Of a stretch of DNA of 64,000 bases, positions 44,368 to 48,107 are shown piece after piece (the first letter of the stretch is position 1; the number at the start of each line of letters is the position of its first letter). The stretch lies in IMG/VR virus record IMGVR_UViG_3300036715_000153, positions 32,001-96,000 of that record, one strand, 5' to 3'. The translations under genes and the position numbers were made by a program. The DNA comes from a virus. The notes below the pieces were generated by a model. The model was not told the origin of the DNA, did no database searches, and was given only the letters and a program-made list of their open reading frames with translations.

Positions 44368-45813
44368 TTAGTTGACGTTATGCCAAACTATTCCACCACG
44401 AACTTCTGTTTCTGGTTCGTCTCTCGCCATCGCAATAGATAGTATCTGTGGTAACATATCGTGTGCTAGTCTATCTTTATATGCAGCTAATACTGCCGCT
44501 CTCGCATCGCTGTTGTTGAGCGATTTAAAATATTCTTGAGTTGTAGCCCAAGCAAATAACACGATCGTCATAACCATATCGTCGTGTGCATTATCGTCTG
44601 CCTCGTACGAAGATCCTTTACTAATAAACGTAGAGAACTCTGAAATCGTCGCTTCGTCGTTTATAATAAGCAAGTCTGACTCGATAATCTGTTTTGCATT
44701 CGAACAACCGATGCGCTTCGTACGCTTGTCTGTCCTCAATCCGTTCTGCTGTTGCATTGATGCACCAGACATTAACTGTTGTCCGTGTTTAGTAGATTGC
44801 CCTACCCACGCAACGTTCTCGTAACCAAACTCATATACTAGCGTATCTGCGACTTGTTTACCCGTAGACTGAATCTCAATCAATACAAATGCTGTGTTAT
44901 ATTTAGTTGCAGTTTGATATATGAAGTCCGGGAATACCATAGGATTCATTCTATTATTCTTATACGTTGCGACCTGATTATACGGTTTAGCCGTAATGTC
45001 TATTACGCTGAATGCAGACGAATCCCCACCCACACCTTCAGAGCAGTCGACTGTCATCATGTATTGGTGACCTTCAATCGGGGATTGGTATATTTTTAAA
45101 TTGTTATGAATTAGTTCTGGATTAGCGTGTACTAGCTTGCGTAGTGTTTGTGAGTTTAATAGCGTACCAGATGAACCGATAAACTCTGCACCAAACTCTT
45201 GGTCGAACGTTTCTTGACCAATGTTAGAAATCGTATCTGCTTTCCATTTCTCATCTCTACCCGGTACGTCCCACCAGTTGATAGAGTTGGCTACGAACAG
45301 CGAACGTTTTGACTCCGCGTCTACCCACAGCTTATAGAAATGATTCAGACCTTTGGGTGTAGACACCAAGATAACCTTAGTTTCTTGACCAGATGAAATA
45401 GTGGGATATACTGAGTCCCAGAACTCTGCCCACTGAGTGCCCATGATAAAAGCTACCTCGTCTACAAACAGCAGACTGATGGACGTATTGTGTGAAACTA
45501 TTCCGTTGGCATAATATTTATTATCTTTAACCACGAATGCAGGATCGTACATCTTCTTACTACAGTTTATAATAGTTTTACTCGATACTTTACTTATACC
45601 CGATTCTGTCACTAACGCTGCACCATTGCGAATAGATGATGCCTTTTTCCATCCTCGATCAGTCATTAACGGGTGGTTGGGAGTTACTTCTATAGAATTA
45701 CCATTGATTGTCTCGAATTTAATAGTTTCGTCTGTGTCATATACAGCGACACCCGAAAAATCGGACCACCCGTCTGGTGTAAGTATTTCCCAATCGGTGT
45801 TATTTAGAAACAC
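44368..45813 (-). CDS. gp17: Large terminase C-terminal half fused to split-intein IntC
   Basis: The first 109 aa are IntC (TPNHP block B, ending YYANGIVSHN). Then TSISLLFVDE Walker B, STPKGLNHFY, nuclease VDCSEG and HDDMVM. GTG start. Confidence 0.93.
   Translation of the reverse strand: MFLNNTDWEILTPDGWSDFSGVAVYDTDETIKFETINGNSIEVTPNHPLMTDRGWKKASSIRNGAALVTESGISKVSSKTIINCSKKMYDPAFVVKDNKYYANGIVSHNTSISLLFVDEVAFIMGTQWAEFWDSVYPTISSGQETKVILVSTPKGLNHFYKLWVDAESKRSLFVANSINWWDVPGRDEKWKADTISNIGQETFDQEFGAEFIGSSGTLLNSQTLRKLVHANPELIHNNLKIYQSPIEGHQYMMTVDCSEGVGGDSSAFSVIDITAKPYNQVATYKNNRMNPMVFPDFIYQTATKYNTAFVLIEIQSTGKQVADTLVYEFGYENVAWVGQSTKHGQQLMSGASMQQQNGLRTDKRTKRIGCSNAKQIIESDLLIINDEATISEFSTFISKGSSYEADDNAHDDMVMTIVLFAWATTQEYFKSLNNSDARAAVLAAYKDRLAHDMLPQILSIAMARDEPETEVRGGIVWHNVN
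45487..45813 (-). other. Split intein C-fragment (IntC, 109 aa; +1 residue Thr)
   Basis: Terminal His-Asn followed by Thr; resembles the AceL-TerL type IntC. Confidence 0.9.
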
Positions 45814-45988
45814 GAATCCGCCCGAGCTGGTAAGAAGTTAACTAACAAGTCGTGACGGTCATGCATCACTTCCCCGTGATTTACATCGATCGACAGCTTA
45901 GTTATGTAAAATGATTGAGTCATCATTGAAATCTCCTTTATCTTTGGTGCATAAAACGTAACAGTCTTTAGCTGTTACGATGTAGCAC

Positions 45989-46135
45989 CTATCCCTGATT
46001 TAAAATATACTGTTTTACTGTCTCCGTTGATGCTTGTCCAGTCGATGCTACAAAATATCCATTAGACCAAAAAGTTCTTTCTTTCCAAAAATATTTAGAA
46101 AGATCAAAATGTTTCCAAATTTCAATAGTTGTTTT
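45989..46135 (-). pseudogene. tnpA: C-terminal remnant of IS200 Y1 transposase
   Basis: Translates ...FWKERTFWSNGYFVASTGQASTETVKQYILNQG*; HUH-containing N-terminus absent; nearest ATG (46139) is out of frame. Confidence 0.88.
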
Positions 46136-46208
46136 CCATAATATATTATTTAGTGAAATATATTTTCAATTTATAGTGAAATATTAAAAATGATAACTAA
46201 ATAGTAGT

Positions 46209-47423
46209 ATGGAATTCAAAGCATACAAATTCAGAATATACCCAACAAAGGAACAAGAGAAAACTCTTGCTAAGTTCTTTGGTGCCAAACGATGGATTTT
46301 TAATCATTATCTTCACGAAAATAAACAACGCTTTCAGAATAAAGAAAAGCACCTTTCTAATTTCGATATTAACTATGATATTACAACTCTTAAAACATTA
46401 GAAGAAACTTCTTGGTTAAAAGAAATTGATTCTATATTACTACAGAACGCCAGTGAAGATTTACACACTGCATATTCGAATTTCTTTAATTCTATAACTG
46501 GTAAACGTAAAGGTCCTTCTATTTCGATCCCTAAGTATAAGTCGAAATATGATAAACAATCATATCGTACTCGCGGTGTAAAGGTGAACTTCGACGATAA
46601 TATAATAACTTTACCAAAAATTAAGAAAGTCAAGGCAGCTATTCATCGTAAATTCACTGGTAATATTAAATCATCGACAGTTTCAAAAACTGCATCTGGT
46701 CAGTATTATATTTCAATACTCGTTGAGGAAGATATTAAACTACTTCCTGCATCTGGTATCGAAATTGGTATTGATCTTGGTATCAAAGACTTGTGTATTT
46801 TGTCTAATGGTATCAAGTTTCAATCTCCTAGAATATTACTAGCAAAAGCCACGCTAGAATTAAAGAAGCAACAACGTAAACTAAGTAGAAAGCAAAAGAA
46901 TTCTAAAAATAGAGCCAAGCAGAAAATTAAGGTAGCTAAAGCATATCAACGAATAACAAATATTCGTAATGCTTACTATCACGAAATTTCTAATTATCTC
47001 GTTACGAATTTCGATGCAATATACATGGAAAGTCTCAATGTAAAAGGAATGCTAAAGAATCGTAAATTAAGTAGATCAATTCAAGAGTCTAGTTGGTCGA
47101 CATTAGTTAATATGATTCAATATAAAGCAGGATTTTACGGTAAAACTTTTCATCAAATTGGTAGATTTGTTCCTTCGACAAAAACATGTTCGTGCTGTAA
47201 TCATAAATTAGATTCGATTTCTCTTTCTACTAGAGAATGGTCTTGTCCGGTGTGCAATACACTTCACGACAGAGACCTGAATGCAGCATCGAATATTAAA
47301 AATTTCGGTCAATTAGATGTATATGATCGAATAATACCTTCACGTGCATCAAGTGAAGTGGAACTAAAAATTCCAGCGGCTCTATTGAAACACACCAGTA
47401 AAATCGAAAGAACTGTAGTTTAA
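46209..47423 (+). CDS. tnpB: RNA-guided endonuclease TnpB
   Basis: KAYKFRIYP, RuvC motifs GIDLG / MESL / DRDLNAA all intact, CSCC-CPVC zinc finger. Confidence 0.96.
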   Translation: MEFKAYKFRIYPTKEQEKTLAKFFGAKRWIFNHYLHENKQRFQNKEKHLSNFDINYDITTLKTLEETSWLKEIDSILLQNASEDLHTAYSNFFNSITGKRKGPSISIPKYKSKYDKQSYRTRGVKVNFDDNIITLPKIKKVKAAIHRKFTGNIKSSTVSKTASGQYYISILVEEDIKLLPASGIEIGIDLGIKDLCILSNGIKFQSPRILLAKATLELKKQQRKLSRKQKNSKNRAKQKIKVAKAYQRITNIRNAYYHEISNYLVTNFDAIYMESLNVKGMLKNRKLSRSIQESSWSTLVNMIQYKAGFYGKTFHQIGRFVPSTKTCSCCNHKLDSISLSTREWSCPVCNTLHDRDLNAASNIKNFGQLDVYDRIIPSRASSEVELKIPAALLKHTSKIERTVV

Positions 47424-47500
47424 ACTACAGTTGGTGTGAGGACGGAGCAAGCGTAACAGTCTTTAGCTGTTACGCAGTTGACTACTATTTAACATCAAGG
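47330..47500 (+). ncRNA. Predicted TnpB omega/reRNA (scaffold to 47482, guide from 47483)
   Basis: Stems cacacca/tggtgtg and aactgtagttt/aaactacagtt plus the right-end hairpin; 5' boundary inferred. Confidence 0.6.
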
Positions 47501-48107
47501 CTAATTGCTCTATGGTTAAATGCTTTATTTCGCCAGTGACTTTGTGTCGTATTGTTATCATGGTAGATGCATCTACACATCCACGAATTGCGCTTGAGCT
47601 AGTAGATGCTGCGATGATAGACGAACCATTTTCTAATTCGATACTACCTTTGTTCCACGTCACCACACCTTGTTGTAACCAACTAGGTAATAACTCGAAG
47701 GCAAATTTAAGACGACTTAAAATCTCTCTAGACGTAGCACCTTTGTTCGCTAGAATTGCAACAGTTTTACTCTTATTAAATAATATATAGTGAAGCATAA
47801 ACCCAACGGAAGAAGTAGACTTCCCGGACTGACGACACCACTTCGATAACACAAATCTATTATTGTTTATATCGTTTACATATTTCTTTTGATAATCGTG
47901 TAGATTAAATGGAATAATCCCTTTGTCTACGTGAACGATCTTCATATATGTTTCTATGAAGTAAACTGGGTCAGATTCACACTTAACAAATTCGTGAAGC
48001 TGTTCTGCTGTAAGCTCTTGTACTACTCCTACGGCTTTGAGCTTAGGATTACGATTGTAATACCTAGGGCCGTTATCAAATTTTAATCGCGCAGCTCCGG
48101 TTGTCAT
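47463..48107 (-). CDS. gp17: Large terminase N-terminal half fused to split-intein IntN
   Basis: [15 protein letters not shown] Walker A, WLQQGV, SSSAIRG, then a 38-aa IntN starting [11 protein letters not shown] (47579-47466). Confidence 0.93.

Follow-up and report, generated by a model that had tools for sequence, protein, structure and literature searches.

Phages are known in which gp17, the large terminase subunit (TerL), is encoded in pieces. In the fractured gp17 described by Dassa et al. (2009; PMC2677866) the gene is broken "at an unusual point", the C-terminal part of the split intein is 122 residues long, and a free-standing endonuclease gene lies in the gap. The GOS-TerL N-intein, from a class of atypical split inteins with a short N-terminal and a long C-terminal part, tolerates shortening from 37 to 27 residues without losing its function, and the 25-residue part of AceL-TerL can take its place (PMC11766414). 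Insertion sequence (IS) elements bearing TnpB as their sole protein were reported in 2010 from T4-like Campylobacter phages (PMC2853527), and a review of 2026 has proposed on theoretical grounds that TnpB might home, non-restoratively, into coinfecting phages (PMC13565253). Here we analyse a TerL gene that is split into two cistrons by an intein and that carries in the gap an IS200/IS605-family element with tnpB. It lies in a window of 64,000 bp, bases 32001-96000 of the 140,394-bp IMG/VR virus record IMGVR_UViG_3300036715_000153, a record with direct terminal repeats.

The locus is a fractured terminase of an already described kind into which a decaying IS605 element has been inserted, and so represents a new combination of known parts. 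The explanation we favour, with a probability of roughly 0.7, is that the phage inherited a fractured TerL and tolerated the chance landing of an IS605-family element whose TnpB and RNA have stayed intact. An earlier account of the window made from its letters, referred to below as the sequence-only reading, had not recognised the arrangement as described. The combination of TerL split and TnpB is indeed new here, as is the residence of this TnpB lineage in phages, while the component parts, namely fractured gp17 (PMC2677866) and TnpB-only IS elements (PMC2853527), have been published before.

The two TerL open reading frames (ORFs) lie on the same (minus) strand and each carries one part of an intein, as in other fractured genes. 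The N-half ORF (47463-48107) specifies 214 residues, of which the first 176 form the N-extein (47580-48107); this includes the Walker A region, aligns to residues 17-176 of 80 relatives and ends in AIRG, after which follows a 38-residue segment starting with Cys. The C-half ORF (44368-45813) has a GTG start and opens with 109 residues ending in HN, followed by TSISLLFVDE. The C-extein with its stop codon (44368-45486) supplies Thr+1, the Walker B motif and the nuclease domain, and it aligns from residue 1-2 in the relatives. The Pfam profile Terminase_6N matches the N-half over its positions 6-94 and the C-half over positions 95-213; Terminase_6C matches the C-half, where weak Hint/intein matches are also seen. 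A profile search of the genome gave a single match to Terminase_6C and no second TerL, the only other Terminase_6N match being weak, below the cut-off, and located in an unrelated P-loop ATPase ORF.

The position of the junction was assessed within a survey of 160 loci, made up of 80 related IMG/VR TerL loci, in which the neighbourhood was checked for tnpB within 6 kb, and 80 IMG/VR loci with a related tnpB. TerL is contiguous and free of any intein in 79 of the 80 TerL loci. Because the two exteins abut exactly in these relatives, at G176|residue 1-2, the proposed junction AIRG|TSISLL is right and the predicted product is a normal TerL. To judge from the sequences, protein trans-splicing most likely ligates the two polypeptides at AIRG|T and thereby rebuilds the ATPase just before Walker B. 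The sequence-only reading fared well on these points: ORFs and profiles confirm that gp17 lies in two cistrons, one with an N-intein of 38 residues starting with Cys and the other with a C-intein of 109 residues ending in HN, extein abutment upholds the junction AIRG-TSISLLFVDE, and the genome does not hold the second, intact gp17 against which that reading had cautioned.

The native part of the N-intein (47484-47579, minus strand) consists of 32 residues with Cys1 and block A, and stops at the IS boundary, 47482/47483; the C-intein (45487-45813, minus strand) has 109 residues with blocks B, F and G, and ends in HN. Cys177, which is Cys1 of the intein, stands directly after AIRG and is invariant in an alignment of seven split N-halves. 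Likewise, H47 of block B (TxxH), D90 of block F and N109 are invariant in an alignment of 14 C-halves, and the +1 nucleophile is Thr. Among solved structures the C-intein is best matched, over residues 3-109, by CatC, an engineered consensus atypical intein (6dsl_B, E 2.1e-7). The 43-residue N-intein region found no match among solved structures, probably because the query is too short. On these features TerL is assigned to those split by an atypical intein, with a short N-part and a long C-part, of the GOS-TerL/AceL-TerL/Cat class, and by analogy with the shortened GOS-TerL N-intein the 32 native residues present here should suffice. A scan of IMG/VR with C-intein peptides gave no confirmed relative, and an exhaustive search found 1,039 proteins with a comparable C-part. 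Among the best 150 of these, many start with the C-part, and a large share are pieces of TerL that are split or interrupted at three different sites. The class of atypically split TerL inteins is thus populous, and it has already been described.

Several other loci and proteins show other forms of TerL intein. In L119 (1477-6266) the intein is unsplit: TerL contains it as a contiguous mini-intein of the same class, at a site (AIRGxS|C) two residues downstream of that in the window; this TerL adjoins two different tnpB genes, one on each strand, which is another case of TnpB landing beside TerL. In L055 (2629-5322) TerL is contiguous, with 897 residues, and its large intein sits four residues further downstream than the one in the window; inside the middle part of that intein an HNH-like endonuclease ORF (3251-3922) runs in another frame. 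Two proteins of 297 residues, P0003 and P0004, have a C-intein first, then about 90 residues of terminase ATPase, and an N-intein last, which makes them the central pieces of a tripartite terminase.

Four comparison relatives, labelled L085, L086, L097 and L098, have the same split as the window. In L086, a contig of 198 kb, an N-half (217 residues, AIRG|C), a gene for a NUMOD3-type homing endonuclease (HEN; 359 residues) and a C-half (484 residues) follow one another, each ORF overlapping the next, with no IS; the N-half is 57% identical to that of the window overall, and 59% over the junction region. L097 has the same order of N-half, NUMOD3 HEN and C-half, again without an IS, and at 4082-7476 a second NUMOD3 endonuclease gene is seen directly after the C-half, in addition to the one in the gap. 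L085, which is the closest C-half relative (68% identical over the first 125 residues) and also lacks the IS, has an endonuclease-like gene, recognised by eye from its HEN-like C-terminus, that ends across the GTG start of the C-half. In L098 an upstream gene of 421 residues overlaps the start of the C-half.

In the window this slot measures only about 130 bp. A free-standing HEN gene is not present between the halves; where L086, L085 and L097 have theirs there is an ORF of 40 residues (45804-45926, minus strand), without HEN similarity, which has a strong AAGGAG ribosome-binding site and a stop codon that overlaps the GTG start of the C-half. That GTG start is homologous to the starts in the IS-free split relatives, and the geometry of the overlap is like that in L085 and L086. 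From position and overlap geometry only, this gap ORF is possibly the relic of a deleted HEN gene, a suggestion that we hold loosely. Excision of 45942-47482 in silico, joining 45941 to 47483, leaves the halves unfused: the N-half runs 14 codons further to a stop of its own, which overlaps the start of the gap ORF, and a codon-by-codon alignment is obtained between the restored sequence and the uninterrupted tail of L086. Because excision leaves two separate ORFs, the element did not create the split, and the split of TerL is older than the transposon.

The element itself (45942-47482, plus strand) is 1,541 bp long. Its left end adjoins a TTTAT pentanucleotide (45937-45941, plus strand), the target or target-adjacent motif (TAM), and a 21-nt hairpin (45958-45978, plus strand) lies 16 nt from this end. 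An identical 21-nt hairpin (47453-47473, plus strand) lies 9 nt from the right end and is followed by the terminal GCAGTTGAC. Subterminal hairpins at both ends, with insertion 3' of a short target and without inverted repeats, are what is expected of the IS200/IS605 family. The left boundary was placed from the 11 nt before the hairpin, which are common to three copies in the genome (one with a single mismatch), with TTTAT or TTAAT five bases further left in each of the three, TTAAT being found at the copy outside the window. The right boundary follows from GCAG-YY-GAC, which comes after the hairpin in three genome copies before they diverge. A GTTGAC terminus is also kept in related tnpB elements, 14 in number, on contigs of other phages, and there too the sequences diverge beyond it; these elements have a hairpin with a similar loop and different, compensating stems, then GTAGTTGAC, then unrelated sequence. 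The G+C content is 0.25-0.35 inside the element, compared with about 0.40-0.45 in the flanks.

On the antisense strand of TerL the insertion thus follows a TTTAT within the last codons of the N-half, this TTTAT being complementary to the ATAAA that precedes the ribosome-binding site of the gap ORF. As a result the tail of the N-intein beyond residue 32 has given way to a stretch that the element's right end supplies, the six residues SQLRNS and the stop TAA (47463-47482, minus strand), within the right-end hairpin and terminal GCAGTTGAC; the last five codons of the N-half, two bases of the sixth and the TAA all lie inside the element. The insertion is probably tolerated because the affected codons encode an unstructured, dispensable tail of the N-intein.

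The hairpin occurs five times in the genome, namely at the two ends of the element, in two further exact copies and in one copy with two mismatches, and none of the three extra relics that carry it has a tnpB. The first relic is a solo derivative of 46 nt (42155-42205, plus strand; the 46 nt are 42160-42205, after TTTAT), made up of left-end flank, hairpin and right-end terminus, with the same pentanucleotide at the same distance as at the left end of the element. Recombination of one end hairpin with the other, identical one could give rise to it, and it sits between the stop (42207) of a structural-looking gene on the minus strand and a late-promoter-like motif. The second is degenerate (5690-5719, plus strand), with two mismatches in the hairpin followed by the right-end terminus GCAGTCGAC; the third lies outside the window (C1:100491-100511 of the genome). 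TTTAT is part of the complement of TATAAATA, the T4 late promoter motif, so that late promoters offer ready-made insertion sites for the IS on their opposite strand, and one relic lies exactly at such a place (window 42153-42160). The exact hairpin was searched for in IMG/VR and gave no match. That the hairpin might be a regulatory element of the phage's own was considered and ruled out, as related tnpB elements elsewhere carry hairpin-plus-GTTGAC with compensatory changes in the stem.

The element's transposase gene tnpA is truncated (45992-46165, minus strand), lacks a start codon, and matches Pfam Y1_Tnp over positions 70-121 of 121 (E 1.6e-10); a profile search found no other Y1_Tnp match in the genome. 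Because most of tnpA has been lost, the element cannot move by itself. Lacking a complete Y1 TnpA, it is a decayed, non-autonomous member of IS200/IS605. In contrast to the remnant, tnpB (46209-47423, plus strand) is intact, encoding 404 residues with the Pfam domains HTH_OrfB_IS605, OrfB_IS605 and a TNB zinc-finger domain. The protein matches the solved TnpB structures 8bf8/8exa over its full length (E 5.7e-71), and when it is aligned with 9yyg, a designed nuclease that closely resembles TnpB, the catalytic motifs DLG, E and DRD and the zinc-finger motif CxxC..CxxC are kept.

The 3' domain of an omega RNA scaffold (47353-47482, plus strand) overlaps the 3' end of tnpB and ends in the right-end hairpin and GCAGTTGAC. 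These last 130 nt of the element fold far better than shuffled sequence (z = -5.8), and in a consensus structure of the scaffold, derived from 15 elements, 23 of the 32 pairs show compensatory double changes. Directly after the right-end terminus, inside the coding tail of the N-intein, lie the 18 nt that would match the guide (47483-47500, plus strand), a sequence that the genome does not contain a second time even when up to 3 mismatches are allowed. From the conservation of motifs and scaffold, TnpB and its guide RNA are apparently functional. IStrons are group I introns fused to IS605 or IS607 elements and are removed from the mRNA by splicing; an Rfam scan of 44000-48500 with E up to 1 gave no match, neither to a group I intron nor to a curated omega RNA family, and with tnpB antisense to TerL the possibility of an IStron was dropped.

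Mapping of the ends and the Pfam domains agrees with the sequence-only reading that an IS605 element with intact tnpB lies between the halves on the opposite strand, that the last codons and TAA of the N-half come from its right end, and that TTTAT and the 18-nt flank are TAM and guide match, both being identical to those obtained from the boundaries. Its further supposition of a working mobile element is not supported, given the truncated tnpA and the lack of an intact transposase in the genome. The tnpA remnant, the gap ORF, the three additional hairpin-bearing relics and the split relatives devoid of an IS do not figure in that reading.

The phage is a T4-like myovirus, as judged from neighbouring genes and from the nearest cultured matches. 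These include Pelagibacter phage Mosig, Methylophilales phages and cyanomyoviruses, all of them distant, with DNA identity of at most about 70% over short stretches of TerL. The nearest relatives of its TnpB, at 55-76% identity, adjoin UvsW/UvsY, gp23, DNA polymerase or RNase H genes. Of 27 IMG/VR tnpB loci at 48-66% identity, 20 share other genes with the window phage, and nearly all those at 44% identity or less share none. Cellular genomes were covered by a scan, dependent on two conserved peptide patterns, of representative genomes from 185,579 prokaryote species, in which the best match reached 44% identity. The loci on the phage side (L104-L127, L135, L162 and L170 of IMG/VR, 48-76% identity) are to be set against the cellular loci L184-L262. 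This lineage of TnpB therefore appears, from its sequence relationships, to be resident in T4-like phages rather than in cells, and to have a covarying, GTTGAC-ended guide-RNA scaffold.

Among the 80 TerL loci none has a tnpB relative within 6 kb, and among the 80 IMG/VR tnpB loci none has its tnpB inside a TerL split, although three adjoin TerL. The phage-borne IS has landed in many places, of which this insertion appears to be just one; it probably survived here because the site is permissive. An insertion in the gap costs little because the gene already works as two proteins.

The proposed course of events is as follows. The terminase gene passed down to this pelagimyophage-like, T4-like phage would already have been fractured, by an atypically split intein, and the halves of TerL would be rejoined by protein trans-splicing at AIRG|T. 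An IS605-family element would then have landed after TTTAT in the last codons of the N-half, leaving 32 native residues of the intein, and would later have lost most of tnpA while tnpB and the guide-RNA scaffold stayed intact. With a guide matching the 18 nt beyond the right end, TnpB should cut IS-free alleles (TTTAT plus flank), and repair of the cut by recombination with an IS-bearing genome would copy the element in, which amounts to homing between coinfecting phages. The persistence of tnpB and its RNA during the decay of tnpA fits selection on the nuclease, for example through such homing. Taken as a whole the locus looks like a tolerated chance insertion and not a designed circuit.

A stronger role for TnpB, which we consider unlikely but which survives better than the other alternatives, is that it took over the part of the HEN in the fractured locus and was selected as an RNA-guided drive, or as a weapon against competitors, under the shelter of the split intein. 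A missing protein HEN, an intact tnpB and a decayed tnpA are the pattern to be expected if the nuclease and not transposition were selected, and the lineage is phage-resident, with its RNA scaffold kept. T4-like phages recombine heavily, which would favour homing, and non-restorative homing into coinfecting phages has been put forward (PMC13565253). Against this, there is a single instance, repeated at none of the 160 loci surveyed; the same lineage occurs at unrelated sites and so shows no tie to intein gaps; the guide has a narrow reach, since at the homologous site in L086 only about 10 of its 18 positions match; and the low G+C content, together with end hairpins identical over all 21 nt, suggests that the element is a recent arrival and not one partner in an association of long standing. 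It is similarly doubtful that the phage-resident TnpB lineage acts as an RNA-guided HEN between coinfecting phages, having here replaced the protein HEN, with two stacked selfish systems (a split intein and an OMEGA nuclease) holding an essential gene.

The sequence-only reading had gone some way in this direction. Its picture of TnpB as wired into the gap is not supported, given the age of the split, which L086, L097 and L085 have without the IS, and the synteny of N-intein, tnpB and C-intein that it proposed to look for was seen at none of the 160 loci surveyed. Nor is a special relation of TnpB to this site supported, the same lineage being found at many unrelated places in T4-like phages. 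Its view of TnpB as a homing element in the HEN slot holds in so far as the slot, by the layout of the relatives, does contain the IS; homing is plausible, but as generic TnpB biology (PMC13565253).

The following observations weigh against a tolerated insertion in an inherited fractured gene. The gap ORF has no convincing protein similarity to any of the four gap proteins of the relatives, HENs included. Shortly upstream of the C-half, the left-end hairpin and the short T-rich run that follows it on the TerL strand look like a weak terminator, and the T4 late promoter motif TATAAATA is absent between the halves and not enriched in the window. The arrangement is known from a single metagenomic genome, whose completeness by CheckV is 78% despite its direct terminal repeats; searches for the empty-site allele (a 22-mer, in metagenome and viral contigs) and for the flank by itself (a 24-mer, in metagenome contigs) gave no match, and no near relatives were found in these contigs.

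Some of these points would fit the alternative that the IS has put the terminase operon out of action, through a polar effect that abolishes the C-half or through damage to the N-intein, and that the record is a defective or minority genome or an assembly chimera. The terminator-like hairpin, the gap devoid of a late promoter motif and the presence of only one TerL all speak for it. We nevertheless think this very improbable: the genome assembled as one contig of 140 kb with terminal repeats; TAM and right end at the junctions are exactly those of a genuine insertion, and the site once restored can be aligned with a relative; neither TerL ORF is broken and the intein keeps all its catalytic residues; and the 32 native N-intein residues exceed the 27 that suffice in GOS-TerL (PMC11766414). 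We infer, with the tolerated insertion, that the C-half is expressed across the element. Finally, the notion that the transposon created the split by breaking a formerly contiguous mini-intein, which draws on the closeness of the IS to the split point and on the contiguous mini-intein two residues downstream in L119, can be dismissed, since the reconstructed empty site has two ORFs, a spacer of about 130 bp and a GTG start homologous to those of IS-free split relatives, and since in three relatives, L085, L086 and L097, the split is present and the IS is not.

If TnpB is active here, the locus offers a natural test case for its homing between coinfecting phages in the manner of protein HENs, an idea that so far exists only on paper. 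More generally, the locus shows that other mobile DNA can land safely in the gap of a fractured gene. The phage lineage of TnpB, with 48-76% identity in T4-like phages and 44% or less in cellular genomes, may matter more than the single insertion, and for protein engineering there is one more atypical split intein, with the pair Cys1/Thr+1.

Of the described systems, the locus most resembles the fractured gp17 of Dassa et al. (2009; PMC2677866). In both, an essential phage gene lies in two cistrons on the same strand, with a split intein at a conserved ATPase site, and the unusual break after motif N1 gives a long C-part, of 122 residues there and 109 here. The relatives of the window extend the likeness, with a NUMOD3-type HEN in the gap of L086 and L097 and a HEN-like C-terminus in L085. 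The difference is that the gap in the window has no HEN gene, the space being occupied by an ORF of 40 codons and, on the opposite strand, an IS605-family element. With GOS-TerL, AceL-TerL and Cat-TerL the locus shares TerL as host protein, an N-part of comparable size (25-37 residues there and 38 here) and a C-part of about 104-115 residues, that of the window aligning with CatC over its whole length. It differs in having Cys1/Thr+1 where those have Cys/Cys or Ser/Cys, in that its splicing is a prediction from sequence, and in that the last six residues of its N-intein are derived from the transposon.

IS200/IS605 elements with TnpB, such as ISDra2 and ISCaje, have in common with the present element subterminal hairpins, insertion 3' of a pentanucleotide, the RuvC and zinc-finger motifs of TnpB and a structured RNA at the right end; the ISCaje elements (PMC2853527) also reside in a T4-like phage genome. 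In contrast to them, the present element has inserted within the coding tail of the split intein of an essential gene, its tnpA is only a 3' remnant and divergent from tnpB, and its lineage has at most 44% identity to TnpB in the sampled cellular genomes. IStrons, too, place a TnpB element inside an essential gene and make it harmless by a splicing process, and TTTAT is also the target of the group A IStrons (PMC13565253). Here, by contrast, no group I intron is detected and tnpB runs antisense to the host gene, and the rescue would take place at the level of protein, by an intein that was there before the element arrived.

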